Both the position numbers and the translations under genes were made by a program. From Macrostomum lignano (Eukaryota): DNA of 64,000 nt. Shown piece after piece: positions 1,059-54,710 of this stretch. Positions within the stretch are counted from its first letter, which is position 1. Each line of letters opens with the position of its first letter. A model generated the notes under the pieces. That model had not been told where the DNA came from. It was given only the letters and a program-made list of their open reading frames with translations, and did no database searches. The stretch spans positions 124,001 to 188,000 of the forward strand of contig NIVC01001510.1 of NCBI GenBank assembly GCA_002269645.1, given 5' to 3'.

Positions 1059-4000
1059 TCAACGAAACATGACCGAATCCAGATAGGAGCGCAGATTAGC
1101 GCGCACAGTGTCAACCGGGTAGGCGGCCCTGGCCTGCTGCACTAGTTCGGCGAACTGCACAAATTTTTGGCTATCCGGCGCCAGCTCCTCGCATACCGGG
1201 TGACAGGGACAGGCGAATGGCGATCTGTCAATGACGCACCGTTCAGTGCTCGGTTCAACTGAGGCTACCCAGGAAATCAGATTATGACAGGGGAAACTGA
1301 ACGGCGGCACGTGGCAAATCTCGCGCATCTGGGCTGGTATAGCGCGTAATTTAGTTTGCCAGGCTTTATTGCCACGAAGTTGTCGATTTTCTCGAGCAAA
1401 TGTTCGAACCTTGTCTCTGGCGCCTAGACAGCGGCCGAAAGCATCCTCGGCATCGCATTGAAAGCGGATGACGCAATAGCCGCAGTTAAGCTCGGGCTGC
1501 AACGGGTCGCGTGGCACGTGGACGCTGCGCAGCCGAGGAATCATTTCGCGTAGGGAGCCGATCAGCTGGGATAGTGGCAGTTGAGTCGGCAGATTCCAAA
1601 TTAATAAGAAAGGCGCCTGTTGTCTGGTAGGCCAGAACAGAAACCTGTCTGGCAGGCTTGAAGCAAACTCGTGACACGTGACTGTACTGTATTCGCGTAG
1701 GCACAACGAACCGACAACGGAATCATGAGCCGACTTGTCTGTTGGTTGAGCGCTAGTCTCTGCTTGAGTAGTCGCAGAGGCAGGTAGCTTTTCGGCTTCA
1801 ATCGCCGCCTCTACGCTTGGATTATGGGGCTTATTAGTTGAACCGGACTCAACCGTTCGAACAACAGTGTCTAGAAGAGCTTCGGCTACCTCTCGAACTA
1901 TGATGTCGACTGAAGCCGACTCATTAGTGTCAGACGGTGTTTCACTAGTAGTCTCGATTTTTCCCTCAACACCTTCGATAGCTTTGTCAGTAGCTGCTAC
2001 ATCAATAGTACCTAATTGCATAGACTCAACTGTCTGACCATCGCTATTCGATTCAACCTTCTCCGTCTTGTTTCTGTCCGGTTTTTCAACAGACTCGGTG
2101 ATCTGATCTACAGGATTAGAAGCCTCAGGCTTTTTACTTGCACCTGCTTCATTTGAAATAACAAGTGAATGGTTAACTACACTAGGCTTCGCGTCGGTCA
2201 CTGACACATTCTCAGAAAAGTTAGCTTCGTCAAAGACGTTGCTGGCAGAAGTTTTTTCGTCGATGACTGTCTCAAATAGAGCGCCAATTGGATCGGTTGT
2301 CACATCTCTGCCGGGTGCGTCTACTACATTATCTGCCGACATACTCGGATTCGCTGTGCTCACTGCCTCTTCCACTGTTTCCATCGAGTCGGCGAGTTCT
2401 GCATTCTGGTCGGCTGCAATCAACGCATTAGCTTCAGCTTTCAGGTTCTCAACGCAACTGACTTCAATAGAATGGTCTGCTGCTTCAGCATCTCTAACGG
2501 TCGCTTCATCAGCGGATTCAACAGCAATAGCATTCAATTCAATTGTTTTCGTCTCTGCTGCTGAATTTGACTCAGCCGATGTTGTTTCCATGCTCTCTAC
2601 AGCTGACTCGACTGGATTAATTTCTGCCTTAGCTTCTTCGACAGGTTTAGAATTTACATCGCTCATCGCAGATTGACTTGTACTGACATCTCCCAGTCCG
2701 TTTGACTCCGTCGACTCCGCTTCAGATTCTACCCTGAACTCAGCATCCGCATCCGGCATACCTCCAGAGTCAGAATCTGTCGCATCACTATCTTTAATAA
2801 TTGGGAGCTCCTTCTCCCAAACAACCTCGAATTCGTCGTCTAGAAACTCGTCTGCAGTCAACGATTTCTCGTCATTCAAATATAACTTCAACTTTTTCGC
2901 AGCCGATCTGGCCAAAAATTGTGCCACATCCATCAACCGAGACTTTGACAAAGACTTGCCAGGCAAAGGTGCCACTACAACGGCTTTGGAACCAGTGGAC
3001 GGATGCACTACCGCATAGCAACTTGCATAACAGTCCTGAAATATAACTTGAATACGATTACTTAACCAAATGCAATCAGTTTCTTTGGGAAAACCTGAAA
3101 TAACATAGTACGTCTCCAGTCCACTAGAAATATACCAACTATCTGATGATATTGAAATGGCAGAGGAGGCAGCAGAAACACAATTGCTGCTTCCAATAGC
3201 AGGCTGCCTGAGAAGCGAATCTGTCTGCTGAATCATTTTCAAGCCCAACAAATACAAGTTCGAGTCGTCTGACTGCTTGTCAGTTTTCCTTTGCCGGTCA
3301 GGCTGCAGCTGGGCTGCGGTGCTTGCTGCACCGTTCGATTGCTCTGCCGACCGTTTGACAGGCGCGGTAGCTGCGTCCGAGCGACGCGAAGATGACCCGC
3401 TGATTCGCCGCCGCAAAGAGCTACTATTCGGTGATTTTGATCTGTCAGCCTCGCTGGTGCGTTTGCGATGTCGCGATGATGAACTTTTGGAGCGAGACCG
3501 GCGGCTATGGCGATGACGAGAATTGCTTTGCCGAGACCCAGATCGCCGGTTGTCATGTCGGGATCGCCGCGATTCCGTGTGGCGTCGATGTCGAGATTCG
3601 TCACCCTTGGACGCTGATCGATCATCGGCCCGATCGCGTCGGTGACGCCGCGAATCGCTACGGGAGCTGGATCTGCCAAAGCGGCGGTGCTCCAAGCCGC
3701 TCGGCGATTTAGACTCGTTGTTAGACTGACGCCCCGATCTACTGGGTGATCTGGACGGCGATCGTCTGCCGCCGGTGTTGAGTCGGCCTAGATGCCGATT
3801 ACGATCGCGATCCTGATCGGGTGTAGAGTCAACCCAGAGCGAAGCTGGTCTTGGTGCTTGCTGGCGATGCTGCTGCATAAGCATTCGCTGTTGCTGCTGT
3901 TGTTGCTGCTGCTGTTGCTGTTGCCAGGCCGCCATAGAGGCCGAGTAAGCAGCATCGAATGACTGCTGCCCCGGCATCATTCCTGAGCTTATCGGCGGCG

Positions 4001-4937
4001 GCGGATAGTTAAACTGATGGCCAAACATTCCGGGTGGCATTACCGCCGCCATTGGTGGCGCGTTCCAATAAGACTGCGGCGCTATAGGGGGCGCCACACT
4101 GGCAGGATACTGCATGTATTGCGCAGGATGAGAGTATTGGGCCTGCTGAAATGTTACTAGCGGATGAGGATAATGCGCCTGAGCTACTTGGTTAAAAATC
4201 ATCATTGGCTGGGCTGGCTGGGCCTGCAGATGCTGTTGTAGCGGCGCCGGCGGCGGAGTCGACGAAGGCGACTGAAGCGACTCAGCTGGAGCCCACAGCT
4301 CAAAGACGGAGAAGCCGTCTGAAGAGGAGCTCAGCCGGTTGATGATTTCGGTACGATCGGCCGGGTTAGTCGGCACTCGGACAAAAGCGGCACGGGCGTC
4401 GCCCAGGCGTTCAACAATGCGCACATCGTCGACAGGAATGCGGCCGCCAGCGGCACCGTCGGATACGTCAGCGGGAGTGAGATTGTCTGGTAGGTTGTAC
4501 AGAAACACGAAATTCAAACGGCGTTTGTCAACCGGCTGACGACTGCCGCAGACGCCGTTTTGTATGTAGACAGGGCAGGCGGTGGAGCGGGCGGACAGGT
4601 GACGATAGGTGTCATCCCATTGGCTGGAGTCCAACTGGTCAAACAAGGCTACACAGCAGTTGCCAGGCAGCTCCGCGTAGTTAAGCACACGCGATCCCAG
4701 CGGATCCAGCAGCTCTCTAAGCTGACAGGCGATTCGATGCAGGAATACAAAGTCCGACTTAACCAGTTCAGGCTCCTCAGTGGAGCCGGATGCGGCGGAG
4801 ACGGCGCCTGGCCGTTTATCCGGCGGCAGCATCCGCTCCTGGTGTCGCTTGCCAAGCACGTGCACTTCGTAGCCTTCCCGAGTCATCATGCCCACCGAGC
4901 AGAGCTCGCAGTAGAATGGGAACGAATCGCGATCCAT
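1059..4937 (-). CDS. Intronless 1292-aa putative nuclear RNA-binding protein: U1/matrin-type C2H2 zinc finger, up to four RRM-like domains, P/Q-rich, RS-rich and acidic low-complexity regions (matrin-3/ZNF638-like architecture)
   Basis: Uninterrupted ORF. N-terminal FYCELC-x12-H-x5-H finger; RRM-like segments FVFLYNLPDNLT...AAFVRV, YYVISGFPKET and FLLIWNLPTQL...NCGYCVIRF; poly-Q then an SR/RH-rich block. AATAAA on the minus strand at 1014-1019, ~40 nt after the stop. Orthology not established. Confidence 0.85.
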   Translation of the reverse strand: MDRDSFPFYCELCSVGMMTREGYEVHVLGKRHQERMLPPDKRPGAVSAASGSTEEPELVKSDFVFLHRIACQLRELLDPLGSRVLNYAELPGNCCVALFDQLDSSQWDDTYRHLSARSTACPVYIQNGVCGSRQPVDKRRLNFVFLYNLPDNLTPADVSDGAAGGRIPVDDVRIVERLGDARAAFVRVPTNPADRTEIINRLSSSSDGFSVFELWAPAESLQSPSSTPPPAPLQQHLQAQPAQPMMIFNQVAQAHYPHPLVTFQQAQYSHPAQYMQYPASVAPPIAPQSYWNAPPMAAVMPPGMFGHQFNYPPPPISSGMMPGQQSFDAAYSASMAAWQQQQQQQQQQQQRMLMQQHRQQAPRPASLWVDSTPDQDRDRNRHLGRLNTGGRRSPSRSPSRSGRQSNNESKSPSGLEHRRFGRSSSRSDSRRHRRDRADDRSASKGDESRHRRHTESRRSRHDNRRSGSRQSNSRHRHSRRSRSKSSSSRHRKRTSEADRSKSPNSSSLRRRISGSSSRRSDAATAPVKRSAEQSNGAASTAAQLQPDRQRKTDKQSDDSNLYLLGLKMIQQTDSLLRQPAIGSSNCVSAASSAISISSDSWYISSGLETYYVISGFPKETDCIWLSNRIQVIFQDCYASCYAVVHPSTGSKAVVVAPLPGKSLSKSRLMDVAQFLARSAAKKLKLYLNDEKSLTADEFLDDEFEVVWEKELPIIKDSDATDSDSGGMPDADAEFRVESEAESTESNGLGDVSTSQSAMSDVNSKPVEEAKAEINPVESAVESMETTSAESNSAAETKTIELNAIAVESADEATVRDAEAADHSIEVSCVENLKAEANALIAADQNAELADSMETVEEAVSTANPSMSADNVVDAPGRDVTTDPIGALFETVIDEKTSASNVFDEANFSENVSVTDAKPSVVNHSLVISNEAGASKKPEASNPVDQITESVEKPDRNKTEKVESNSDGQTVESMQLGTIDVAATDKAIEGVEGKIETTSETPSDTNESASVDIIVREVAEALLDTVVRTVESGSTNKPHNPSVEAAIEAEKLPASATTQAETSAQPTDKSAHDSVVGSLCLREYSTVTCHEFASSLPDRFLFWPTRQQAPFLLIWNLPTQLPLSQLIGSLREMIPRLRSVHVPRDPLQPELNCGYCVIRFQCDAEDAFGRCLGARDKVRTFARENRQLRGNKAWQTKLRAIPAQMREICHVPPFSFPCHNLISWVASVEPSTERCVIDRSPFACPCHPVCEELAPDSQKFVQFAELVQQARAAYPVDTVRANLRSYLDSVMFR

Positions 4938-6605
4938 TGATTTGTTTGTTTATTGTCACTCTGTATTGTTAATGCACAGTTGTAATTGAGGTCAGCCAGC
5001 TGTGCAGCTGCCTTAGGTGCGCATTAGGTTGATATTCTGAAACTGTGTCGAATCTTGCTTTCAGTAATTTGAGCCTTGGAACTATTTACGCTTGATTGTA
5101 TGTTTCTTTATAGCAAGTGCTGAAATGGATCATGATTAATTTTTCAAGTTTTTCACTCACTTGAATCACAAAATTATTAATGCAGTTAAAAAATAGCATC
5201 AGTCCTCAGCATTAAATAATTGTTACTATTGCAACTAGATACTTTGCATTATAATATGTTAGGGAGCTAAGTCTATGATGAATATTTAACTGGTGTTTTA
5301 TGAATAATTTCCACTAGCTGTGCAATTTGGTTTTAACAAAAAAGAACTTGTTGGCTCTAGTTGCAACATACATGTGCAAACTCTGAAATTACACTGGTTG
5401 CAACACTAAGTCACCTGGTGCCACTTGGAATGGTTGAGAGACTAGCTGAGGATTTTCAGCAGTTGAGCTATGTCTATTATAAAGGCTTGATTAGAAAAAT
5501 TAGAGAAATTTGCAACAGGTTGTCCATAGTCTCTTGGCGCCACCTGCTGAAGGTCTAGAAGCTCCGCCTGGGTGAAAGTCAGTGACAAGCAAAGCTAGAG
5601 CTGATGCCAAACATGTGGTCAATGTGCTGATGAAATTTTAAGGCTTGGCAAAGCTGGAAGTGCAGTGCTGATTGATGCATAGTACATTGAATACAATAGC
5701 ACTTATGGGAAAAATCCAACATGGCAAAGTTGTTAAGAATCGACTGTAAAGTTGATTCTTGCTTGAAAGGTACACACGAAAAGTTAGCCTACATTCTTGA
5801 ATTTTGTATGCCTATATTGCTCCATTCTGGCATAGAAAAATTGCTAGGAGGGGGATCTTCCTTCCCAATTGGCAGTTTTGATAGGTAAAAGAATAGCTTG
5901 GTATTCCTATTGTAAAAATAGGGCCTAGAAATTAAAAAAACGGGCAAAATTTTATTATAAAATGTCCAACTGATATTTGTTGTATATTGTTTATTAGCTT
6001 ATTTTATAACATTAAAATTATACAGTTTTATAGGCCCCTAACATAGTGTGTAATAGTTTTGTCTAGCCTTTTTTTATTTGCTAGTAGAGAAGACAACTTC
6101 ATTAAGCAGACAAATATCTTTTAAGTCCCAGTTCTAAAATCTTGGCTTGCTAAAAATAAAAATACATATTTTGATTGAATAAGTTATATAAGCAGTATGC
6201 CATACTTTTACACTATGTATTGGGTAAAACAGAAAGTTCTCACCATTTGTGAAGCCTTCTATGAATTGAAGTGCTTAAAGTACATAGATTGGTACTATAG
6301 CACTGTAGCTAAAACTTGAATCTGGGTTGCTCTATGTCAGTCAATGACATTTATTTACCTCTGCACACAAACCTGGAAGCTTCTAAAAATTTCTGTAAGC
6401 TTAACATATTTAAAACCAACTAGAAAATCATGATATTGCACTTGTCTGAAAATTTCATGCCTACAAGTAGACCAACTTTTAAGATTAAATAAACATGTAT
6501 AATCATGTACTACAAACTCAATAAATATCTCACAATGATTAGAGAGAAAAGTTCTAATCTATAATCAGTTTCTATAGCACTTTTGGTAGCTCTGCAATGT
6601 CTTCA

Positions 6606-7880
6606 ATGGCTTTAACTCATTTGGAGAACCAATTAAGAATATGCCTGGTCTGCTTTAAAAAAGGAGCATCTCATGCATATATTCATGATACAAATATATA
6701 ATACATCAATTGACATTTTATTGAAAACATTGATATCACTAATAAAAGTCTCCTAGCATATTTATGCATTTGGTGTCATAAACTTCTTGATGTCAATAAT
6801 GGTAAGAAGCCAATGGATGCTCTGCCCAAATGATACAACTTTTCACAAGTGAAGCAAACAGTAGTTATACACCAAAATCCCTTATTCCAATGTGATCTAT
6901 GTGAAGTCACCCAGATGACTACAATTGGTCAGGGGCTTGGCTCTGCCAAAGTTTTGTCTTCTCCAATTGGCTAGCCAAAGACATCTAACAACCAGCTGCC
7001 TATAGCTTTGCTAGCCAAAATCTGCCAATACTGCCTTTGCATCCTCTAGCAAGGAATCAGTCACTGCTATACCATCACTCAATTCAGGGAAAATGTGCAC
7101 CATGTACTCTATAGACTAGCAAGGTGCTAAGATGCATGCAGCCAAAGTGATCAAGAGGATCATATTGATAAGCATAGTGATACTCAAATTCAATTAACTA
7201 CTTATGGGTAGAATCTGAAACTCAATGTCCTAGCTATATTACAAGCTAAAAACTTGGCTGCTTTCTATGATTTGCCCATCTCAGCATCTGAAATGAGTTG
7301 CTTTTAGCAGGTGCTAAGTCTAAGCAAATAGCAAACAAGGACTATAGCACAATAATTCTATAAGTAAAATGGGTAGAATTTAATTGAAGCAGGTCTAGAG
7401 TCAAAGTTGCAGCAGCTAGACAGCAGTCTCAGCAAACATTTTTGGTGATCAATACAGAGTTTGTGATCAGCAGCAGTCAGAAAAAGTGCTGCCGTTATAT
7501 TCTATAGGGACCTAATAGGTCTCATTGATTACATGCTGCAACATTGGAGGGTGCCTTTTGGTTCTAAGTTTGTTGCAAAAGTTGGAATGGAGAGTGGAGG
7601 AGATTTTCTAAAGATCCTAGCCTTTTAGTTGACATATCAACTGAGGCAAGTGACTTTGAGACAGCCTACCAATGTCTACTTAAGCAACTTTGCCAAAGGG
7701 GGTGTCAAGAGACTCGTGCTATTTAGAATTGTTCAAGGAGTAAAATAAATATATGCCAACCTTAAGACTATGCCAGGTCTTTTGAATATGAATGGCTTCT
7801 AATATTACTATTTGATAAGACATGAAGATGGCCAACATCTTAAAGTATGTTCCATGGGTGCTATGATCTAAAGATGAATA
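6606..7880 (+). pseudogene. Decayed Chapaev-like (CMC/Transib-related DDE) transposase
   Basis: Reading from ATG 6606 through stops: MALTHLENQLRICLVCFKKG...LCIWCHKLL...LPK*YNFSQ...FQCDLCEV...G*PK...KICQYCLCIL*QGISHC (Chapa-like Cys/His domain); LSLSK*QTRTIA...LIEAGLESKL; KVGMESGGDFLKI (7578 on, cf. IDGGGxFLK / FIDSSKxSLK); GVKRLVLF...K*IYANL (cf. ExYxN); DMKMANIL (cf. DLKxxNIL). The C-terminal catalytic part appears deleted. Motif matches are from memory of the family. Confidence 0.7.
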
Positions 7881-8399
7881 AAAATCATTAGGAAAGGTCC
7901 CACTCAGACTCCAACTCTTTATTTAAAGTTTAAAGGTAGATTCTATAACTTAATATATAGCTTATAGGCCAAAAAATATTATAAATAAAATGTCCTAATT
8001 TATTTAAACTATCTCACAGATAACAAAGTATGCCAGGTAGCAACTGCTTAGTAGCTTTTGCATTAATTTAGGACAAAGGGTTTGGCTTTCTTAGACCATA
8101 TTATTGCACTTGATAAGAGACTTGGATTTGTTTATATGAGCCCAACCTCAAAAGCCAGAACTCTGAGTGGCAGCCAAAAAATTCTGTCTAGCCATTAAGA
8201 CCAGTTTTGTGACAAGCCAAGGGAGTTGACAAGATAAATTGCATGCATGCTATGACAATTTTGGCTTTATTCTTATTTACTGCATGTTTTAAGGCCAAAA
8301 AATTAACTAGCAGCCTTATTGGAGCTTTATAATTCACTATCACTATCTTTGGCCTACTTTGCACAAAAATTGGCCATAGACCCTAGAACTTGGTCTACT

Positions 8400-9320
8400 C
8401 CTTTTGCATGACAATGCCAGTTTACACACAGCCTGCATTATGCCAGACCTATTGTGAGATTGGCATTCCTTTGGTTTACAATCACCTTCTATTTTGCCAC
8501 TTCCAGTTTACACATAGCCTGCCTTATGCCAGACCTATTGCGAGATTGGTGTTCTTTTGGTTTACAATCACTTTCCATTTTGCCACTTCCAGTTTACAAT
8601 CACCTTCAATTTTGCCACTTTTGGTTTTAGATCATCTTACATTTTGCTCAATTGCAGCGCAAAAATGGCATGTTTAAAACAAAAAACAAAAAATATGCAA
8701 AGTTGAAAGTGCAATTTGTTGGATGATGCTTATATATATATTAGCTTTGGTATACGATCATTTGAATGTGTAATGCAAATAGAAATGATCATGAACTGAA
8801 GCTAGGTTAAAATTAATATTGTATGTAAACATATGCACTTAAGGTAAACCATAAAGGTAATATTTCCAGCTTTGGTTTGCAATCATTTCAACAAAGTGCA
8901 TGTAGAAGTGATTGTAAACCAAAGGTGAAGGAGAAGGGGTTGAAAGTAAGGGAGGATTTTGATGCCCTCAATCTAGAATGATCATAGTTGTTTTCTGCAT
9001 GTGACTATTTGTCATAGTTGACACACTTTTCTATAGCCAGCTTTGGTTCAATATAATTTTAATAGGTAATACATGTTTTGGTAATTGTAAACCAAAGGTG
9101 ATATATATAAGCTGCCAGCTCAAACTTGCAACTTGACAATTGAAATTATTTGACAGGCTTTCCTACAGCTAGCTTTGCTTCACAATCATTTCAATGGGCA
9201 ATATACATTTGGGTAATTGCAAACCAAAGATGATATATATATAGGCTACCAACTCAAACTTGCAACTTGACATTTGAAATTATTTGACAAGTTTTCCTAC
9301 AGTTAGCTTTGGTTTGCATT
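8400..9320. repeat. Degenerate ~85-bp and ~130-bp repeats built on the motif CTTTGGTTTRCAATCA in both orientations (hairpin-forming units)
   Basis: Direct duplicate at ~8418 and ~8503. The ~130-bp units at ~9036-9310 and a related unit at ~8869 each carry ctttggtttgcaatca...gtgattgtaaaccaaag. Confidence 0.6.
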
Positions 9321-9971
9321 TAATTGGAAAAACTATTGGATTTTGTCTTACAATTGTTTTTAGTAGTGATTGTCACTATTTGAAGTAATTGATTGATTTG
9401 AGTCTCTATTTAAAGTGATTATTAACAAAAGGAATGCCGTGGGATCATTAGTATAAGGTACCACCTTATCCTTCTTACTTCCTAGACCATTGACAATTTA
9501 TAATTGTAAAACTACTTTGTTACCAAAGTGGCTAGCTGGCTTTTACCAAAGACAAGTACATTACATTATTTTTGAATTAGCTTAAAAACTCAAGATGAGT
9601 TTAGTAGGCCTTATAGGAAATATTATATTGAATTTAATGAATTAGCTTAAGAATTAGAATATCAATTAAGAAAGTAAAAAAACTGTTGCATTAAATTTGT
9701 TTAGGATATATGTTAATACTCTCACTACTTTAACATAGAAAATTTCAAATTAAATCCAATATTATATTCTACATTGAAATATCAAACATATATCAACCCA
9801 GAATTTGATGCAATTTTTATTGTGTGGAACCATGACTTAGCTAATTATGTTTTTATTAATACCAATTTAATAGCCTAAAAAATTTTGGGGAAAATACAGA
9901 AAGTAACCCTGACCCTATTAAATTAGATATAGGGCCTATTATTTTTTATATTGTATCCATAGGTACTATGG

Positions 9972-10681
9972 GTAACTAGTTGTTTTGCCTATAAACTGTT
10001 TTGGCCATGGACATTTTGCCCTTAGACCAGTTCGCCCACAGACTGTTTTGCCTATATAGACCATTTTGGCCATGGACCATTTTGCCTCCAATTGTCCCAG
10101 TTTGGCCAAGGTGGCAACGAATGCCTAAACTTGGAGAAAAGTAACTTAGAAGTAAAGGAAAAAAGAATAGTAGTGTATTGCAATACTGACTGACTGAGAA
10201 ATAATTATACATGTATATTGTAACTTCAATTCAATTCATTCTAGGCCAAACCTTTTCTCACCCTTTGATTGTTCAAATTGGCTTTAATTGTTGCACTTTT
10301 TTAAAGGAATAACTTTAAAAACTCATAACATAAGAATTCACAATTGTAATAAACAAAATTGCAATAATGCAATAACACAATTGTTATAGCAACAATTCAG
10401 ATCATTTTTGATTACACATTAAAACTAAAAATCAGCATTGAAGAAAAAATAAAGATATTAGGCCTATACTATATTGCATTGCTATATCTTTAAATTACAT
10501 CATAGGGCCTAATCCCAATTTTGGCCAAAATGCCTTCAGCCTACTGCTTGCCTAAGCCAAAATTACACTACACTACACTACAATAGCCAAACTGGTTTAT
10601 GGGCAAAATGGACTATGGGTGAAATGGTCTAGGGGCAAAATGTCTATGGCCGAAATGGTTTAGGGGCAAAACAACTGGAAT
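9972..10681. mobile_element. Non-autonomous fold-back/MITE-like DNA transposon with ~100-bp imperfect terminal inverted repeats made of ~15-bp subrepeats
   Basis: 9975-10080 (agttgttttgcctataaactgttttggccatggacattttgccctt...) is the reverse complement of 10590-10680 (...ggggcaaaatgtctatggccgaaatggtttaggggcaaaacaact). No coding capacity; TSD unclear. Confidence 0.7.
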
Positions 10682-11462
10682 TTGTACTAGGCCCTACATT
10701 ATCAAATAAATAAACAATCAAAAGCAAAGATACCTTAGACTTAGTCTGTGCTGTCAGACCACCTTACTCAAAATTTTCTAGATCTATCATACTATCTATG
10801 ACTACCAATATAATGACTTAGATTAAATTATCTAGAGTGACTAGACTATGCAACAGCAACAACAACAAAAATTCATCCAGATTTTCTAGGCCTACAAAAT
10901 TGCACCAGTAAACATGATTGTCCATACTTTCTGCTCTAATGCTTATGCTGCTCAAGAAAATATGCACAAAATGCAGCCAGTTATTAGTTATTAAGTTATA
11001 GATAGTGCCTGCACCATTTGATTTTTGTTTAGAAAATTTAGGCAAGTACAGTACAAAATAGACTTGAGTATCATGAGATCATAGTCAAGTGACAAGATAG
11101 TGGTGAGATAGACTGTTAACGGTGACAGACGTGGAAACAGGTCAAACAGTGAATGCAACTGACTGTTCTGTTTTGTTAAGCCAAACATTTTCATCGCAAT
11201 TTAAAAGTTTTTCAAGGTGTAAAACATTTAAAACTACAATTGAGCATTATTTACGTAGTATAAGAAAAACATTAATTCTTAGTAAATTTGTACATTAGTA
11301 GTCGACAAACTAATTGAAAATAATTCACAAACTAATCGAATAATTCACACAATACCTGCGCATTTTTTTCTTATATAATTTTTAACTTAGAAGACTACTG
11401 ACGCTCACTTTTTGTCTTCTTTTAGGCTTTTCACGAAGATTGGTTCCAGAACCAGAGTAATC

Positions 11463-11774
11463 CCGATTCCAGAACCAGAATCAGTAGGAAAATGAAAAGC
11501 TTCGAACCCATTCTGCGTTTGTCAGTCTTTCAAATTTTTTTTTGTCTTTCCTTGACTTTGTTTCCTCTTGGATATGACAAAAAAGGGAATAATTAATTAA
11601 ATAACAATTAAAAATTGATGATTTCAAACACATTTTACTGTTAAAGTGTGAACATCAAAACGTCCAGAAATTTTCTCAATCCAAATTCCAGAACCAGAAC
11701 ATGATTCTGGAACCGATTCTGAAAACGGAACAGCAATATGAAAAGCTTCAAACTGATTCTGGTTCTGGAATCGG
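11463..11774. repeat. 22-bp perfect inverted repeat pair, possible MITE
   Basis: ccgattccagaaccagaatcag (11463-11484) is the exact reverse complement of ctgattctggttctggaatcgg (11753-11774); further partial copies lie inside and nearby. Confidence 0.5.
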
Positions 11775-12013
11775 TAATATAAAAAGCCTAATGGCTCACG
11801 GTAAGAAGCAGCAGAGGTTTTTGAAGCAAATTTAAAAATCATAATAAATTCATGACCAAATTAAATTGCAGTCAGTTACATGAGTGTTTTAGCCACCTCC
11901 AAAATAGTTTTTTTTTAATTTAGAAGAGAGTAAAACTGTCCATGCACTGTTATTTTTTCTTATAAATGTACATGTACATTAACAAACTAACTTTAGCATG
12001 CTGTTAGGCGGTG

Positions 12014-12679
12014 TTAGACGGTGTTTGGACGTGGCTGGCGGCTCAGGACATCTGCCGGGTTGTCTGCGCCCGGCTGGTAGGTGACTTCGAAGTGGAGATC
12101 CTGCAGCCGAAGTGCCATGCGCTCGATCCGCGGCGGGGACCGCGAGCCGGGGCTGAGCAGGCTGACCAGCGGCTTGTGGTCGGTGATGACTTTGAACTTT
12201 GGGCAGCCGCTAAGGTAGTGGTGGAACTTGAAGCAACCAAATTTGACGGCCAGTGCCTCCCTCTCTGTCTGCGAGTAGCGCTGCTTGGTGTCACTGAGGC
12301 TGCGGCTGGCGTAGGCGATTGGCCTGGTGAGGCCGCCAGGTTGCACCTGGGCGAGGATCGCCATGAGGCCGGTCGGGCTGGCGCCGACGATCAACCTGGT
12401 CTCGCAGTTCTTGTTGAAGAAGGTCGTGCTGTGAGCGATCGACAGCTTGATTAACTGAAAGGCTGAGGCTTGCTGTGGGCCCCACGACCATTTCACGCTC
12501 TTCTTGGTCAGCTCTCGAAGTGGCCTCGCTTTGTCGGCGAGGTTTGGGATGACGCGGGCTACGAATGTGACGAGTCCGAGGAAGGACCGCACCTCCGTTG
12601 CATTTTCTGGTCGCTTGAAGTTGGCCACAGCCTCCAGCTTTTCCTCGGTCGTTTGGATTCCGCCCGCCGAGAAGCGCAT
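12014..12679 (-). pseudogene. Gypsy RT thumb/RNase H
   Basis: EVRSFLGLVTF, IVGASPTGL (DAS degenerate), IAYASRSL, YSQTEREALAV, TDHKPL, NPADVLSR. Confidence 0.88.
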
Positions 12680-12739
12680 GGCCAGGAAGTCGGCCTGCTG
12701 GGTTGCAATGCGGCATTTGGGGGGGGGGGGGGTTCAGAG

Positions 12740-13540
12740 TCACGTCGTGTTGGCGCAGCCTGTCAAGGCAGGCAGCCTCTCGTTGTGCTCCTTTATGGTG
12801 CTTGCGAAGATAATGATGTCGTCGTGGACCGACCGCACGCCTCTCAAACCGCTCAGGATAGATGTCATGACGCGCTGTAGGATTTCGGATGCTGAGGTAA
12901 ATCCCATGCAAAGGCGCTTGAGGCGGAGCAGGCCCAGAGGCGTTGAGAAAGTAAGCAGCTGCCGGGACTCCTCGCTGACCTCGATCTGGTGAAAGGCCTT
13001 GGCAACGTCTAGTTCGGAGAAATAGGTGGAGCCGGCCATCTCGTCGGTGACTTCTTCGAATGTCGGTATTGGCTGTTTTTCTGGGATGACGTACTTATTG
13101 ACGTCCCTCGGATCCTGCGTGATGCGGATCTCGCCTGGCGAGGCCTTTGGAACGACCACCATGCGTGAACTCCAAGCGCTGGGCCCCGTCACTCGCTCCA
13201 GGATGCCGGCTGCTAGCTGGTCCTTCAGCTCCTTTTCCACGGCGGTTCGAAGATGCACCGGAACTCGAGACGGAGGGTGGCAGACTGGCACCGCTTCTTC
13301 CTTCAGCTGGATGCTGACTGAGACGCCCTTAATGCAGCCGATTTCTTGAAACCTGTCGCTGAACTCCTTCATGATCGATGACAGTCGCAGGTCTTGCGGA
13401 AGGTGCTGGTCGTTGACTGTTGGTGTCAGCCCGGGGGTGAGAGCTGTCTCGGCCGGCGGTCCGACCTCAGCATCCCCATCTGCGTGCTTGTTTCGCGACC
13501 TAGAATTGTGATGCAGTCTTCTCTGATGACGATGAAGCAC
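12740..13540 (-). pseudogene. Gypsy reverse transcriptase
   Basis: PVCHPPSRVP, WSSRMVVVPK, IRITQDPRDVNK, FSELDVAKAFHQI, RLCMG, VHDDIIIF; frameshifted near 12770 and at the poly-G run near 12720-12732. Confidence 0.88.
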
Positions 13541-14613
13541 ACTCCCCGAGTTGCCGTTGATCTTCGTGTGCAGAGTGATCTGGCCAGCGGTGTCAAGGGC
13601 CTCGCTGCTCCGAGAGTATAGATCCTTGTGTGTTTGAGCTGAAACGCCCGCTCGGGTGCTCCAGTTAGATGAAGGGTCCGCTGGCTAAGCACATTGCAGC
13701 TCGCACCGCTGTCGATCAGAATGGGTACGTTTGAGCCGTTGATGACCGCTTTGAAGGTGGCGCTTTTGCGGCTGGGGTCGAGGCTGGAGAATGCCGCCTC
13801 CTCCAGGTGCGCCACTGCTGGTTCCTCTGGCTCAGGCTCTGCCATGTTGATGCGTGCGCGGCCGCTTAGGTAGGCCTTCGCCAGGTAGTGCAGCTTGCCG
13901 CAGTTGCTGCAGCGCTTGCCTTGGGCCCGGTTGCAAGTGCGGTGGCCGGGCTCTCCGCACCGCAGGCATTTGTCGGCCGGGCTGGCTGGCGGGCGCCTGG
14001 TGGAGCGCTTGCCGCGAGCCGCATGCACTTCTTCAGCTGGTCCGGCTGCCGAGCGCTCCATGATGGCCGCTTGTTGGCTGGCTGCTTCGTTTGTTCTCGC
14101 CAGCTGGAGGGCCTCGGGGAGGCTGATGTTGGGCACGTTGAGCAGCCGCTTTCGGAGGGATTCGCTGCGGCAGCAGGCGACGATCTGGTCGCGGATGAGG
14201 GACTGACGCAGCTCGCCGAACTGGTAGGCCTCAGCCGCGTTGCACAGTTGGTTGTACCAGCTGTCGATGGCTTCCCCGTCCAGCTGCGCGCACTGGCGGA
14301 ATCGGTACCGGGTGAACACCACATTGTCGCGTCCTTGAAAGTGCTGAGTTAGCGCCGCTATGAGTGAATCGAGCGTTTGCTGCTCCGGCTGGTCAGTGGC
14401 GGGACGCGACTCTGAGATCTCTTTAAAGATGTCTGCAACCTCTTTTCCCGCGGTGTACAGGAGGATTTCCTGCTTCTGGGCGTCGTCCGAGATTCCTGAT
14501 GCTGCCAGGAATCGCTTTAGTGTGGTGGCCCACTCTGTCCAGCGCTTGCTGACGGTGTGGGGGTCCGCACTGATGCTGAATGCGGATGGCGGCTGTAGCT
14601 GTAGTAGCCCCAT
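13426..14613 (-). pseudogene. Gypsy gag (degenerate zinc knuckles) plus aspartic protease
   Basis: PPSAF...WTEW...LKRFL gag start; RYRFRQCAQ..GEAIDSWY..L; CLRCGEPGH..C and CSNCGK; protease ILIDSGASCNVL; frameshift afterwards. Confidence 0.85.
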
Positions 14614-16518
14614 TGGATCCTGCTTGCAACTCCTGCGAGCAACTCTGGCTGGTTATTGCGAGTGTTAGTTAGCCACTCAAAAAGGTGGAGAAATAGAATG
14701 TGGCTGTGCCTGTATATTTATTGTCTGGTCACAGATTTCCGGTTCATTGAGTGCGCGTTGGGATGTGCTCGAGCAGAGGGAAGTGGATAGGCTGGGTGGG
14801 GGGGGTCACGGAGTGCAAACTAGGTGCCCGAACTGCCTGCCTGCGCATGCTAAAATGAGAATTTGACTCATGTGACTAGATTCGAAATAACTAGATCGTC
14901 CTCGCCCTTGAACGTCCTTATATCGATCGATATATACTCATTACGCGTATGGGTAAAATTGCTTGTAATCGTAAGTTAGATGTAGTATAGTCTATAGTCA
15001 GACATTATAGTATATTGTCGATAGTTTATAGCGTCTATAGCGACGTCGGATTGCTGACGTCGAACGTCGGGGAACGTCGGGTCGGATTGACGTCGGGGTA
15101 GTTAACTACTCTCAACTCACGTTTAAGTAGTCTGCATTGTACCATGTATTTGGCGTGGCAATACCATTTGTAAAAAAACATTGTTTACATTTATCTTACA
15201 TAAATACAGCATATACCATATTTATGCAGCTGAGCTGTAACAATCGCCTGCCCGCAATGCTGATTCCACGAACTGCAGCTGGCTGCAGGGGCTGCCCCAA
15301 CGAAGCCTTCCTTCCCCTGGCTCAGCATATGAAAGAGTTGCCCGCATAGTTATAAAAAGCAGCATAAAAAGAAGAATGATGGGCACTGCAGACAGGCACA
15401 CAGCAGTAGGAATATTAATAGAAACTCAAATGCCCACGCCTACATACACCCTACATGCAGCCATTGTCGTTGAAACCAAGCTAGACTCTGGAGGAGAAGT
15501 AAGAAAAAATGAGGGGAAAGGACTCAGGAAGAGAGCTCGTGTTGCAGGCGGGAAATTGCCTTGTACGATTAGAAAATGGACGACAATGAGTCCAATATAT
15601 AATGTGAGGAAGCATAGAAAGTGGAAAGATTGTCTCAGGGGCGAGATGGATGACGGATCATCGGGTCCAAGAGAAAGAAAGATTGATGGAATGGGAAATA
15701 GATAAGATGGCTCTGCGCAGATCGGACTTCTCCTTCATCATCTCCCGCTTTGCTGGCCCGCCTGGGGAATAGGCGGGGGGGCGGGTATAGAACAAACTGC
15801 CCATTCAGCACGTCTCCTCCATGGGAAATGGGATGTTGGCATTGGGGTGGCTGCCTGCCAATAAATCCTGCCGCCATGTGCAGCCTCTTCCAACTTCAGC
15901 AGAAGCTCCATGCAGACTGTCACCTGTACGCTTTATTCTTCCCCTTCTTCCTCTTCCTGTCTCTGCCTCAGCCTCTCTGCTGCATCACTGCCCAATCTCT
16001 CTGTTGTCTACCGTGTGAGCAGCGAGCGAGACTAAAGGATGTGCAGGCAGCCCTCCACGCGCTCATCTCCCAGCAACGATTCTCTCTCTCTCTCCAAAAG
16101 CAGAAAAAAGTTTCTCGCCGTGAGAACAAATTCTGAAAATTGCAGAACCAGTCCACCGCCTGTATTTTCAAGCTGGCAGCCGCAACCCCAGCCTCCGGTT
16201 CCTTCTCCATCAACCCGATTGGCTAGTCAAGACCCGGCCTTCCCACCCCAGAAAATATCAGTCCTCATACAGATGCCAGCTCACTCTAAACGCTACAGAG
16301 TTCCACTATACCATGTGACGTCGTAAATCAGCAGGCAGGTTATGCTTGTCCCAGAGAACTGTACACTGTCGCCAAAGCTTTTTTATTAGTTGCAGCTGCC
16401 GCTATATAATTAATTTAATTGCTTTACTGGCCTTCCTAATTAACACAGTAGCAGTCAACAGTAAGTAGAAACTCTGAAGGGAAGTTGAACGCTGAGAAGC
16501 GAGGATCAGCAACAGGTC

Positions 16519-34537: not shown

Positions 34538-37500
34538 ATGGCATCGAAGCCGGCCAAGTTTCTCTACCCCTCCGAGGTTCGCTTCTTCGCCCGAGTTAAA
34601 AACTGGCCGGAGCTGACCGCGGCCGCCGTTGACTCCGGCGGAGACCACCGGCTGAACTCGGACAGCCTGTCCGACTATGCTCGCCGCCTGCTTAGCCACG
34701 ACTCGAAGTACCCGAAACTGCAAGTTGTACAGCTCGGCGGAGTCTGGTACGCGCTGAACAGCCTGCAGCTGGCCATCTGCCGGCAGCTGCAGCGGGCCGG
34801 GCACTGCCGCCGGATCCGAGTGCTGGTCTGTCCGGCCGGGCTTCTGCCGGGCGGCCTCGGACAGGCGCTCGGCCGACCCATGGAGTTCGAAGGTCGGTTT
34901 GGGGACCGACATGTGCCTGCGTGTCGTGTTTGTTTGGCCTTCAGGTATATTCAGGATGTAGATCGAGTCTGTGAGCATGTAGATCGAGTCTGTCAATATG
35001 TAGATCGAGTCTGTCAGTATGTAGATCGAGTCTGTCAGTATGTAGATCGAGTCTGTCAGTATGTAGATCGAGTCTGTCAGGATATCTATGCACTGCAATA
35101 TCAAGCCGAGTTCTTAAAAGCTTCCGGTAAGGCGAAGCATATACTATAATTATTAAGGTGTTCATTCTTCAAAAGAAGAAAATCCGCCAGTAATCAGGCA
35201 GTGCGAAAGCTTGCAGAAGAAATGATTGCGGACCGGGGCGGATGAAGCAAGCAAATAAATGATTGAAGGAGGAAAGCATTAGGATAAGAAATTGCAAGCC
35301 TTTAACGCCTTGTAGCGTTCGGTTCATTTCCTGTTGATCCCGCCGTTCCTCTGCACAAGATTCTCCACCCTCTCATTACTGCCGGCAGGTAGCAACCTTA
35401 GACTGCGCTAGAGCCTGCACTTGTATTAATACTTCAATTCTTTTCACTCCCAGCTTGTGCAGTTTCTTCTGATGCTATATAAAGCAGAATATTCTGACCC
35501 CACCTGCGGCTGTTTAGGTTTATTTTTATAGTGTAAGTACTTAATTATACATCTAGTAAGCTCATCACTCTGCTCAGATGGTTAGCACACACTCTAGTGA
35601 GCTCATCACTCTGCTCAGATGGTTAGCACACACTCAAGTGAGCTCATCACTCTGCTCAGATGGTTAGCACACTTTCTAGTGAGCTCATCACTCTGCTCAG
35701 ATGGTTAGCACACACTCAAGTGAGCTCTTCACTCTGCTCAGATGGTTAGCACACACTCTAGTGAGCTCATCACTCTGCTTAGATGGTTAGCACACACTCT
35801 AGTGAGCTCTTCACTCTGCTCAGATGGTTAGCACACACTCTAGTGAGCTCATCACTCTGCTTAGACGGTTAGCACACACTCTAGTGAGCTCTTCACTCTG
35901 CTCAGATGAGCACACTTTCTAGTGAGGTCATCACTCTGCTCAGATGAGCACACATTCAAGTGAGCTCATCACTCTGCTCAGATGGTTAGCGTACACACTC
36001 TAGTGAGCTCATCACTCTGCTCAGATGAGCACATTTTCTAGTGAGCTCATTACTCTGCTCAGATGAGCACACACACTCTAGTGAGCTCTTCACTCTGCTC
36101 AGATGGTTAGCACACACTCAAGTGAGCTCATCACTCTGCTCAGATGGTTAGCACACTTTCTAGTGAGCTCATCACTCTGCTCAGATGGTTAGCACACACT
36201 CAAGTGAGCTCATCACTCTGCTCAGATGGTTAGCGTACACACTCTAGTGAGCTCATCACTCTGCTCAGATGAGCACACACTCTAGTGAGCTCATCACTCT
36301 GCTCAGATGGTTAGCACACACTCTAGTGAGCTCATCACTCTGCTCAGATGGTTAGCACACACACTCTAGTGAGCTCATCACTCTGCCCAGATGGTTAGCA
36401 CACACACTCTAGTGAGCTCATCACTCTGCTCAGATGGTTAGCACACACACTCTAGTGAGCTCATCACTCTGCTCAGATGGTTAGCGTACACACTCTAGTG
36501 AGCTCATCACTCTGCTCAGATGAGCACACACTCTAGTGAGCTCATCACTCTGCTCAGATGGTTAGCACACACTCTAGTGAGCTCATCACTCTGCTCAGAT
36601 GGTTAGCACACACACTCTAGTGAGCTCATCACTCTGCCCAGATGGTTAGCACACACACTCTAGTGAGCTCATCACTCTGCTCAGATGGTTAGCACACACA
36701 CTCTAGTGAGCTCATCACTCTGCTCAGATGGTTAGCACACACACTCTAGTGAGCTCATCACTCTGCTCAGATGGTTAGCACACACACTCTAGTGAGCTCA
36801 TCACTCTGCTCAGATGGTTAGCACACACTCAAGTGAGCTCATTACTCTGCTCAGATGGTTAGCACACACTCTAGTGAGCTCATCACTCTGCTCAGATGAG
36901 CACACACACTCTAGTGAGCTCATCACTCTGCTCACATGAGCACACACACTCAAGTGAGCTCATCACTCTGCTCAGATGGTTAGCACACACTCAAGTGAGC
37001 TCATCACTCTGCTCAGATGGTTAGCACACACTCTAGTGAGCTCATCACTCTGCTCAGATGGTTAGCACACACTCAAGTGAGCTCATCACTCTGCTCAGAT
37101 GGTTAGCACACTTTCTAGTGAGCTCATCACTCTGCTCAGATGGTTAGCACACACTCAAGTGAGCTCATCACTCTGCTCAGATGGTTAGCGTACACACTCT
37201 AGTGAGCTCATCACTCTGCTCAGATGAGCACACACTCTAGTGAGCTCATCACTCTGCTCAGATGGTTAGCACACACTCTAGTGAGCTCATCACTCTGCTC
37301 AGATGGTTAGCACACACACTCTAGTGAGCTCATCACTCTGCCCAGATGGTTAGCACACACACTCTAGTGAGCTCATCACTCTGCTCAGATGGTTAGCACA
37401 CACACTCTAGTGAGCTCATCACTCTGCTCAGATGGTTAGCACACACACTCTAGTGAGCTCATCACTCTGCTCAGATGGTTAGCACACACACTCTAGTGAG

Positions 37501-48889: not shown

Positions 48890-50212
48890 CTGACACAGTC
48901 TAGCGCATGTGTCTGATACAGTTTAGCAACCTCTGAGATAGTTTATCTCTCTTAACACAGTTCTTATCTCTCCTGACACAGTTTAGCATCCCTGACACAG
49001 TTTAGCATTCCTGACACAGTTTAGCATCCCTGACACAGTTTAGCATCCCTGACACAGTTTAGCATCCCTGACACAGTTTAGCATCCCTGACACAGTTTAG
49101 CATTCCTGACACAGTTTAGAATTCCTGACACAGTTTAGCATTCCTGACACAGTTTAGCATTCCTGACACTGTTTAGCATCCCTGACACAGTTTAGCATCC
49201 CTGACACAGTTTAGCATTTCTGACACAGTTTAGCATTCCTGACACAGTTTAGAATTCCTGACACAGTTTAGCAACCCTGACACAGTTTAGCAGCCCTGAA
49301 ACAGTTTAGCATTTCTGACACAGTTTAGCATTCCTGACACAGTTTAGAATTCCTGACGCAGTTTAGCATCCCTGACACAGTTTAGCATTCCTGACACAGT
49401 TTAGAATTCCTGACACAGTTTAGCAACCCTGACACAGTTTAGCAGCCCTGAAACAGTTTAGCATTTCTGACACAGTTTAGCATTCCTGACACAGTTTAGA
49501 ATTCCTGACACAGTTTAGCATCCCTGACACAGTTTAGCATTCTTGACACAGTTTAGAATTCCTGACACAGTTTAGCATCCCTGACACAGTTTAGCATCCC
49601 TGACACAGTTTAGCATTTCTGACACAGTTTAGCATCCCTGACACAGTTTAGCATTCCTGACACAGTTTAGCATTCCTGACACAGTTTAGCATTCCTGACA
49701 CAGTTTAGCATTCCTGACACAGTTTAGCATCCCTGACACAGTTTAGCATTTCTGACACAGTTTAGCATTTCTGACACAGTTTAGCATCCCTGACACAGTT
49801 TAGCATTCCTGACACAGTTTAGCATTCCTGACACAGTTTAGCATTCCTGACACAGTTTAGCATTCCTGACACAGTTTAGCATCCCTGACACAGTTTAGCA
49901 TTTCTGACACAGTTTAGCATTCCTGACACAGTTTAGCATCCCTGACACAGTTTAGCATTTCTGACACAGTTTAGCATCCCTGACACAGTTTAGCATTCCT
50001 GACACAGTTTAGCATTCCTGACACAGTTTAGCATTCCTGACACAGTTTAGCATTCCTGACACAGTTTAGCATCCCTGACACAGTTTAGCATTTCTGACAC
50101 AGTTTAGCATTCCTGACACAGTTTAGCATTCCTGACACAGTTTAGCATCCCTGACACAGTTTAGCATTTCTGACACAGTTTAGCATTCCTGACACAGTTT
50201 AGCAACCCTGAC
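48890..50212. repeat. 19-bp minisatellite (ctgacacagtttagcatcc), array 1
   Basis: ~68 copies. Confidence 0.97.
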
Positions 50213-53794: not shown

Positions 53795-54710
53795 GGTTTA
53801 GCATCCCTGACACAGTTTAGCATCCCTGACAGCAACCCTGACACAGTTTAGCATCCCTGACACAGTTTAGCATCCCTGACAGCAACCCTGACACAGTTTA
53901 GCATCCCTGACAGCAACCCTGACACAGTTTAGCATCCCTGACAGCAACCCTGACACAGTTTAGCATCCCTGACAGCAACCCTGACACAGTTTAGCATCCC
54001 TGACAGCAACCCTGACACAGTTTAGCATCCCTGACAGCAACCCTGACACAGTTTAGCATCCCTGACAGCAACCCTGACACAGTTTAGCATCCCTGACAGC
54101 AACCCTGACACAGTTTAGCATCCCTGACACAGTTTAGCAACCCTGGCACAGTTTAGCATCCCTGACACAGTTTAGCATTCCTGACACAGTTTAGCATCCC
54201 TGACACAGTTTAGCATCCCTGACACAGTTTAGCAACCCTGACACAGTTTAGCATCCCTGACAGCAACCCTGACACAGTTTAGCATCCCTGACAGCAACCC
54301 TGACACAGTTTAGCATCCCTGACAGCAACCCTGACACAGTTTAGCATCCCTGACAGCAACCCTGACACAGTTTAGCATCCCTGACACAGTTTAGCAACCC
54401 TGGCACAGTTTAGCAACCCTGGCACAGTTTAGCATCCCTGACACAGTTTAGCAACCCTGGCACAGTTTAGCAACCCTGGCACAGTTTAGCATCCCTGGCA
54501 CAGTTTAGCATTCCTGACACAGTTTAGCATCCCTGACACAGTTTAGCATCCCTGGCATAGTTTATCATCCCTGACACAGTTTAGCATCCCTGATACAGTT
54601 TAGCATCCCTGACACAGTTTAGCATCCCTGACACAGTTTAGCAACCCTGGCCCAGTTTAGCATCCCTGGCACAGTTTAGCATTCCTGACACAGTTTAGCA
54701 TCCCTGACAT
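53795..54710. repeat. 19-bp minisatellite, array 2 (same family as 48890-50212) with a 19+12-bp higher-order unit
   Basis: ctgacacagtttagcatcc interspersed with ctgacagcaacc. Confidence 0.96.

Follow-up and report, generated by a model that had tools for sequence, protein, structure and literature searches.

A CpG-stripped, C-to-T hypermutated domain directly upstream of a Macrostomum lignano gene is consistent with partly non-CpG DNA methylation

Non-CpG methylation is known in animals from vertebrate brain, oocytes and stem cells. Repeat-induced point mutation (RIP) of fungi acts before meiosis on duplicated sequence and mutates near-identical copies; CpA is its main target, the mutations form strand-coordinated clusters and CpA/TpG depletion is scored by index thresholds. 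As described in the accessible parts of the reports cited in this paragraph, RIP of ascomycetes kills transposon coding sequence through dense C-to-T change, converts CpA to TpA and implicates a cytosine methyltransferase (PMC9246332). In uveal melanoma deficient in MBD4, CpA>TpA changes have also been interpreted as the product of methylated CpA deaminating (PMC11564873; PMC9530848). In plants, mCHH islands are de novo methylated at non-CpG sites; they lie no more than about 2 kb from genes, are associated with near-gene transposons and are stronger upstream (10.1101/045880). The mosaic gene-body methylation of invertebrates goes with bimodal CpG o/e and with the keeping of DNMT1 and DNMT3 (PMC11292947, PMC10658182). 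Lastly, Bigelowiella natans undergoes a TpA-targeted hypermutation, from T/A to C/G, of about 1000-fold (10.64898/2026.01.13.699255).

In this study, we have analysed a 64,000-nucleotide stretch of the Macrostomum lignano genome (assembly GCA_002269645.1, contig NIVC01001510.1, positions 124,001 to 188,000 of the forward strand), hereafter the window. C-to-T change has removed nearly all CpG from a 6-kb block beside a gene, together with roughly a quarter of the CpA there. The features concerned are:

1059..4949, minus strand: host gene, 1296-aa open frame, first ATG at 4937
5100..11100, no strand: CpG-stripped, C>T-hypermutated domain directly 5' of the gene
5426..5920, no strand: decayed terminal arm of an abundant fold-back repeat family
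6400..7865, plus strand: Chapaev-type DNA transposon, decayed and with an internal deletion; remnant of the right TIR at 7841-7865
8008..8455, no strand: decayed repeat copy of a third family
8592..9440, no strand: old repeat family with 125-135-bp sub-repeats
9971..10676, no strand: hairpin (MITE-like) element, arms 9978-10056 and 10598-10676
11421..11791, no strand: MITE-like repeat just beyond the domain, at its graded right edge
12014..14652, minus strand: gypsy-like retroelement (class from the first-pass annotation and ORF reading), neighbouring control

The first-pass annotation had counted about 14 CpG in 5100-11100, which is the exact number, against about 150 expected; the depletion stands, with an expectation of 173 +/- 11 over 2000 base shuffles (minimum 135). 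Its CpG-free stretch from about 5943 to about 7490 is likewise real, with zero CpG between 5941 and 7493, and the flanks are as CpG-rich as it described, with o/e near 1 (83/79 in 4000-4949, 214/239 in the gypsy). Of the two sharp edges that it drew, the left one holds and lies some 160 bp 5' of the gene's first ATG (4937), whereas the right one is graded: the MITE at 11421..11791, half eroded, still has 7 of about 15 CpG. Nor is the block one element: at least five repeat families, unrelated to each other, make up its patchwork. It can also be rejected as one mobile unit, since nothing in the genome matches it over its full length except the duplicate chromosome copy, which shares its flanks and differs inside the block at just 4 sites. 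The loss does extend to the neighbouring repeats, as had been said, and also to the unassigned DNA between them. The fold-back arm keeps 1 of 25 aligned family CpGs (28 in the family majority), the hairpin element 1 of 13 in its aligned part, and the copy at 8008..8455 none, compared with 20 in L071, its single intact relative in the sample; the family at 8592..9440 is CpG-stripped in 15 of 16 other copies examined as well. The gene, with the domain on its 5' side, encodes a weak N-terminal C2H2 finger and has a CpG o/e of about 1. Two of the 14 surviving block CpGs are variable in public runs, as opposed to 1 of 301 in the gene. The gypsy diverges by about 5% from its sister copies with neither CpG nor CpA excess, a control that dates nothing because this divergence may predate insertion. 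In length, 5100-11100 exceeds all 12 stripped blocks of a 600-kb sample. RIP-type indices, which the first-pass annotation had suggested computing, are uninformative in bulk: CpA shows no depletion (o/e 1.27) and TpA no enrichment (o/e 0.87), TpA/ApT is 0.93 and the substrate index (CpA+TpG)/(ApC+GpT) is 1.53. Because CpG loss refills CpA and TpG, bulk CpA stays undepleted and a CpA-to-TpA excess is visible only against an intact reference.

Such a reference exists for the Chapaev-type copy, which is 81% identical to an intact, young family of 3282 bp. This family has 241-bp TIRs, CAC...GTG termini and 4-bp target duplications (in 7/7 copies inspected), all of which we take to be hallmarks of Chapaev; a Chapa zinc finger and a Chapaev transposase profile are presumably further traits. 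Its transposase shows by eye an N-terminal Cys/His motif, matches in Pfam only DUF1280, below the cut-off, and has 9 unnamed homologues; no RNA record appears among the matches listed for the intact element. About 13 TAG/TAA and about 3 TGA stops had been tallied in the window copy; the majority of TAG/TAA is correct, and the in-register count is 14 (7 TAG, 5 TAA, 2 TGA). The four stops suspected of having been Arg codons (6972, 7209, 7329, 7374) are indeed Arg in the intact copy, three CGG and one CGT.

Tabulated by dinucleotide context against the intact family, C>T changes in the window copy follow a clear order: CpG 74/126, CpA 62/232, CpT 25/200 and CpC 14/124, with T>C at 21/728. Of the 64 family CpGs 63 are lost, and about 27% of CpA is converted. 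The second wave of C-to-T change at CpA that the first-pass annotation had proposed is thus borne out (62/232 against 39/324 at CpT and CpC together, p=1e-5). CG has become TA at 15 of 64 sites, and 15.5 are expected if CG goes to CA/TG and then changes at the CpA rate. The changes are spread evenly over codon positions (60/50/50), which implies neutral decay after insertion. In a pooled set of 26 of the 37 stripped segments (11 near-identical duplicates left out; 13 of the 26 use one reference, L072), C>T amounts to CpG 323/624, CpA 377/1333, CpT 153/914 and CpC 97/664, and T>C to 271/5407. When unique changes were polarised in stripped and intact copies of similar transversion load (0.034 vs 0.029), CpA had changed at 68/299 vs 39/784 (p=3e-16), CpT at 30/252 vs 26/683 and CpC at 19/184 vs 29/477. 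In stripped copies, non-CpG C>T is twice as frequent where a pyrimidine stands at -2 (75/358 vs 42/377, p=4e-4), a bias that intact ones do not show (51/977 vs 43/967); among recent differences, a -2 bias is not domain-specific (72:59 stripped vs 141:113 CpG-rich; also 51:20 vs 16:7). In DNMT3-type non-CpG methylation CAC or CAG is favoured; a preference for CAG is seen in the window (39/101 vs 43/221, p=5e-4), with p=0.86 and 0.31 in two other sets. Copy L014 is half eroded, with 26 of 59 CpG remaining; its CpA excess is 0.024 where 0.020 is predicted from its own CpG loss, and its CpA rate (7/196) is no higher than that of CpT and CpC (9/290), and the full order of contexts does not emerge from this copy.

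The effect follows the place and not the element, and such places are common, with stripped domains in 64 of 701 non-tandem sample windows of the genome. Fold-back copies have lost more CpG where their flank is stripped (Spearman -0.57, p=0.003, n=25), and the same test on a 778-bp MITE family, which is CpG-poor at 4 CpG per copy, showed no trend. The MITE copies L103 and L104, probably a single insertion, have CpA>TpA at 18/71 with 1.9% transversions, against 12/643 in 18 copies at 2.3%. Differences between chromosome copies, from which it follows that the bias is recent, show C/T before A at 71/3083 in stripped and 91/11661 in CpG-rich windows (p=4e-11); before C the two are alike (p=0.48), and CpG-rich windows have no excess at CpG or CpA. 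Around 40 genes, stripped 400-bp bins number 36/298 upstream vs 7/289 downstream (gene-level p=0.013), and a stripped bin lies within 4 kb of 12/40 genes upstream and 5/40 downstream (simple discordance test p=0.09). Gene bodies are CpG-rich: median coding CpG o/e is 0.97, and 38 of 40 housekeeping genes are at 0.7 or above.

A PF00145 profile search of the genome found DNMT1, DNMT2 and DNMT3, each in triplicate; all 12 matches among the best-scoring candidates read as one of these, with no RID/Masc1-type methyltransferase among the 12. DNMT3 has ADD domains, its catalytic motifs align with DNMT3A/B across the domain, and the gene is predicted to be catalytically intact. Its PWWP domain appears degenerate, with no Pfam PWWP match and a core reading QSYP where human DNMT3A has SWWP. 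At the CpG-reading position (N838/N779), 113 of 117 homologues have Asn and the Macrostomum enzyme has Cys. In the sections available of the mammalian studies, N838A lowers relative non-CpG activity (PMC9530848) and N779A is absent from the mutants reported to alter it (PMC7672481). These mutant effects do not support the Cys as a source of relaxed CpG specificity, so this replacement does not explain the CpA excess. TDG-like exons and UNG genes are present; a missing TDG can be rejected, and repair is not plainly missing.

The same two reports, as far as their available text goes, give CpA:CpT:CpC activities of 4.9:2.1:0.4% of CpG for DNMT3A in vitro (PMC9530848) and 17:7:6% for DNMT3B (PMC7672481), and describe T>C>A,G at -2 as characteristic of DNMT3A (PMC9530848). 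The excess of stripped over intact copies is 4.9:2.0:0.9, a match of ratios in which just two numbers are free and the counts are low. The order CpG>>CpA>CpT>CpC and, in the polarised copies, the -2 pyrimidine bias appear to match DNMT3 enzymology. Based on these results, we think that the scar probably arose through germline methylation by DNMT3 and DNMT1, partly non-CpG, of a near-gene domain, followed by deamination. In such a process, DNMT3, with upkeep by DNMT1, would keep the domain heavily methylated in germline or stem-cell lineages; methylcytosines would then deaminate to T in the order of the contexts, and CG would reach TA in two steps, through CA/TG. The degenerate PWWP may free DNMT3 from gene bodies and let it act on transposon-rich 5' flanks.

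Of the two options offered at first pass, non-CpG methylation fits, whereas a RIP-like mutator triggered by repeats fails the tests. Homology-triggered RIP is rejected by the substrate index, by CpG as main target, by the lack of strand clustering and by untouched near-identical copies: seven full-length 3.28-kb copies at least 99.5% identical to L004 retain their CpG. Strand-coordinated runs are absent (94 runs in the window vs 80.7 expected; P of as few runs 0.99 in the window, 0.78 in L014 and 0.93 in L015), which also rejects strand-coordinated deaminase action; many mutation rounds could blur such clusters in the window, less so in L014. An active mutator aimed by chromatin, a RIP-like defence in which cytosine would be converted by DNMT3 itself, on the model put forward for RID/Masc1, or by a deaminase working with it, strikes us as unlikely. 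It would account for a CpG hazard in L014 of 57 times the transversion load, for the quarter of CpA lost by L103/L104 at so few transversions and for the enzyme-like context bias, given that an enzyme both selecting and deaminating its sites would leave the same DNMT3-type footprint. However, the runs tests speak against it, as do the sparing of near-identical copies and of triplicated genes, the existence of intermediate stages such as L014, and the lack of any but DNMT1/2/3 types in the 12 PF00145 matches among the best-scoring candidates.

Two further explanations do without non-CpG methylation. Methylation could be confined to CpG and combined with a local, methylation-independent rise in C>T, for instance from ssDNA or poor repair near promoters, with CpA chemically favoured. 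The rise of CpT and CpC by 1.7-3-fold, the equal non-CpG rates in L014 and the 1.4-fold higher transversions of stripped windows (p=0.012) agree with it, but recent differences show a 3-fold rise at CpA and none at CpC, strand asymmetry is lacking (74 vs 86) and intact copies have no CpA preference, and we judge it quite improbable. Age with AT-biased mutation, under which the domains would be the oldest surviving non-coding DNA and any old copy would look alike, is largely refuted and has very little left to recommend it, even though no other copies in their families have diverged as far as those in the window (about 4% transversions) and CpG-rich copies are mostly young. The first-pass annotation had itself raised the case of all old copies sharing one spectrum; this is not so, and copies of similar transversion load elsewhere are spared. 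Outside the domains the spectrum is flat at matched load, with CpG 4/193 and CpA 5/231 in 10 segments of at least 2% transversions, which were chosen for low CpG loss, and the CpG and CpA excess in recent chromosome-copy differences is found in stripped and not in CpG-rich windows.

Beyond germline methylation of this one domain, a wider rewiring is conceivable, although we would put it somewhat below even chances: a DNMT3 without a working PWWP reader would skip gene bodies and repeatedly methylate, in all contexts and in the germline, thousands of upstream transposon zones. If so, these zones would be an animal counterpart of plant mCHH islands, mutagenic methylation would act as a slow, position-aimed RIP that erases transposases, promoters would carry AT-rich CpG deserts, the inverse of vertebrate CpG islands, and a naturally altered DNMT3 PWWP would be linked with the loss of gene-body methylation. 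The mutation record predicts a methylome in which genes are free of methylation, 5' transposon zones carry it and germline mCpA reaches a measurable level, and Macrostomum is amenable to RNAi tests. A literature search, with the genome paper PMC4603488 (which may bear on novelty) outside its coverage, found among the matches listed no Macrostomum methylome or CpG-depletion study and no heritable CpA>TpA scar of such size in an invertebrate.

Set beside the described systems, in so far as the accessible parts of those reports characterize them, the locus shares with RIP its dense C-to-T change, the destruction of transposon coding, the hit on CpA giving TpA and an implicated cytosine methyltransferase; unlike RIP, it has CpG as chief target, spares identical duplicates, depends on position and lacks strand clusters. 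Hypermutation in B. natans is likewise localised, dinucleotide-specific and directed at foreign-derived DNA outside the fungi, but runs in the opposite direction (T/A to C/G, compared with C-to-T here). Uveal melanoma and its DNMT3 scar have the same order of CpG>>CpA>CpT>CpC and CpA>TpA, with a pyrimidine at -2 as in the polarised stripped copies; there the scar is somatic, makes up a minor share of mutations and requires a repair defect, whereas the scar of Macrostomum, an invertebrate, is inherited, stays within domains of kb scale and has taken away about a quarter of their CpA. As in mosaic gene-body methylation, CpG o/e is bimodal and DNMT1 and DNMT3 are retained, but the depleted class is intergenic transposon DNA and housekeeping coding sequence keeps its CpG, a pattern that reverses the usual invertebrate one. 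Like mCHH islands, the stripped zones lie on gene flanks, more upstream than downstream; those islands are made by RdDM and directly measured, while what is seen in Macrostomum is a 1.5-6-kb mutational scar, with DNMT3 as the candidate enzyme.

The first-pass annotation's claim of strong CpG depletion in 5100-11100 is upheld (14 CpG, where shuffles give 173 +/- 11), and it holds in each sub-segment, so that the loss does reach beyond the transposase into adjoining repeats, as had been suggested. The flanks are CpG-rich as described, the gene on the left and the gypsy on the right both having CpG o/e near 1. The edges were said to be sharp, which is true of the left one; the right is graded through a half-eroded MITE.

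1059-4949 (-), 1296-aa open frame left of the block, first ATG 4937
5100-11100, CpG-stripped block of at least five unrelated repeats (genome searches)
6400-7865, transposase piece, 81% identical to a young 3282-bp family
~10650, position of a 557-bp insertion in the duplicate chromosome copy
11421-11791, half-eroded MITE, the graded right edge
35500-37500, 49000-50000 and 54000-55000, further CpG-poor parts, TRF-masked tandem arrays

The 1296-aa frame has a weak N-terminal C2H2 finger and Gln-rich and Arg/Ser-rich stretches, with nothing above cut-off in Pfam. In the family of the edge MITE (loci L082-L099), many copies have one flank stripped and the other CpG-rich, which could reflect either the edges of domains or a repeat that forms one end of something larger. 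The sole full-length genome match to the block is its duplicate chromosome copy, which shares its flanks. Inside the stripped block of this duplicate lies the young 557-bp insertion (G000:C2217 ~81897-82453, in locus L107), whose 40 CpG, imperfect terminal inverted repeats and apparent 8-bp target duplication make it a natural reporter for methylation of newly arrived DNA.

The 3282-bp family carries a 701-aa frame, 241-bp TIRs, CAC...GTG ends and, in 7/7 inspected copies, 4-bp target duplications; we take the TIRs, ends and duplications to be Chapaev features. Compared with its intact copy L004, the window copy shows C>T at CpG 74/126, CpA 62/232, CpT 25/200 and CpC 14/124 (T>C, 21/728), spread evenly across codon positions, and the postulated second C-to-T wave at CpA is thereby borne out. 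The 64 CG in this comparison became CA (24), TG (19) or TA (15), with 1 kept, and the 15 TA agree with 15.5 expected under a two-step route. The reported excess of TAG/TAA over TGA is also present (7 TAG, 5 TAA, 2 TGA), and the four stops read from context as Arg are all Arg in the intact copy. Pooled stripped segments (26/37, leaving out 11 near-duplicates; locus L072 was the reference for 13) gave CpG 52%, CpA 28%, CpT 17%, CpC 15% and T>C 5%.

The feature is probably methylation-driven transposon decay and is not RIP. The RIP-like, repeat-targeted mutator proposed earlier fails on several counts: seven full-length copies with at least 99.5% identity to L004 have kept their CpG, C>T and G>A are randomly interspersed, half-eroded copies occur, and CpG is the dominant target. 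The bulk composition of the block shows neither CpA depletion nor TpA enrichment. The cytosines of these domains might instead have been deaminated by an enzyme guided by chromatin, an explanation favoured by the half-eroded copy L014, where CpG loss is 57 times the transversion load, and one that we consider unlikely. Age alone is rejected because, at similar transversion load, polarised unique changes remain low in intact copies (CpA 5.0%, CpT 3.8%, CpC 6.1%) vs stripped ones (22.7%, 11.9%, 10.3%).

The C>T loss follows place, not age. CpG loss in fold-back copies is greater where the flank is stripped (rho -0.57, n=25). A pair of MITE copies that probably represents a single insertion is stripped, with a transversion load below that of 18 spared relatives. 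The CpG-poor 778-bp MITE family (~4 CpG per copy) showed no trend in the flank comparison, and six pairwise comparisons of the neighbouring gypsy, which do not date it, showed no CpG excess. When chromosome copies are compared in the surroundings of 13 genes (20 partner loci), stripped windows have C/T differences before A at three times the frequency and transversions at 1.4 times; before C there is no excess. In four public runs, 2/14 surviving CpGs vary in the block vs 1/301 in the gene, on which selection acts; of the two contigs, one may be a paralogue. The AT-rich 778-bp MITE family (L225:6781-7558, L278-L304) has been recently mobile, being absent from one chromosome copy; pooled flank CpG o/e is <0.3 in 16/28 copies, which suggests that the family inserts into stripped domains or is retained there.

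Such domains are widespread. In twelve 50-kb stretches from arbitrary places on large contigs, 64/701 non-tandem 500-bp windows had CpG o/e <0.15, forming 12 blocks of 1.5-4.25 kb; by rough extrapolation, the genome would hold some ten thousand, to an order of magnitude. Seven of the 12 lie upstream of gene starts (judged from nearby frames), 2 adjoin transposon-like frames and 3 lack any frame of 130 aa in the nearest 4 kb. Beside the coding regions of 40 Ras, proteasome and E2 genes (median coding CpG o/e 0.97, >=0.7 in 38/40), stripped bins numbered 36/298 upstream vs 7/289 downstream. Counted per gene this is 12 vs 5; the sign-flip test gave p=0.013 and the discordance test, within 3.2 kb, p=0.09.

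The proposed DNMT-family inventory gives three copies each of DNMT1, DNMT2 and DNMT3. The non-CpG C>T excess above baseline, CpA:CpT:CpC = 4.9:2.0:0.9, falls between the in vitro ratios in the accessible text for DNMT3A (4.9:2.1:0.4; PMC9530848) and DNMT3B (17:7:6; PMC7672481). A -2 pyrimidine preference, a DNMT3A trait described there (PMC9530848), is present in stripped repeat copies and absent in intact ones; among recent chromosome-copy differences it is not specific to stripped domains, and a preference for CAG is confined to the window. The DNMT3 gene (G000:C305 ~371600-385400; L269-L271, protein P0011), itself with a CpG-poor patch on its 5' side, keeps catalytic and ADD domains by sequence; Pfam matched no PWWP, and the degenerate domain aligns weakly with that of DNMT3A, its SWWP core altered. 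The 99% identity of a DNMT3 exon to a Macrostomum lignano protein identifies the species. In human cells with this reader disabled, DNMT3B falls at gene bodies and rises at H3K9me3 heterochromatin (PMC7615734, accessible part), and by analogy the Macrostomum enzyme would be shifted likewise. Its target-recognition loop, TTKRCS, has Lys at the R836/K777 position (PMC7335073, in part) and Cys where 113/117 homologues have Asn; mammalian mutants in the accessible text of PMC9530848 and PMC7672481 do not support this Cys as a source of higher non-CpG activity. By motif reading, 4 matches are UNG and 7 belong to at least three different TDG-like genes (L186-L196). Non-CpG methylation by DNMT3 probably explains the C>T domain.

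Transposon decay driven by methylation is known; the stripped-domain pattern of Macrostomum, with its inherited CpA scar, would be a novel variant of it. A literature search that took in few subscription papers, and neither the genome paper (PMC4603488) nor its supplements, found no description of the pattern in Macrostomum and no heritable CpA scar in any invertebrate; 10.64898/2026.09.02.747768 has no bearing here. In the accessible text, reviews describe M. lignano methylation only as low (PMC10658182, PMC11292947), and its patterns were called unknown in 2022 (PMC9246332); a compartment already emptied of CpGs would result in a low global level. CpA>TpA from DNMT3A-methylated CpA appears in MBD4-deficient melanoma (PMC11564873, in part), and in plants non-CpG methylation near genes is already known, as mCHH islands (10.1101/045880, in part).
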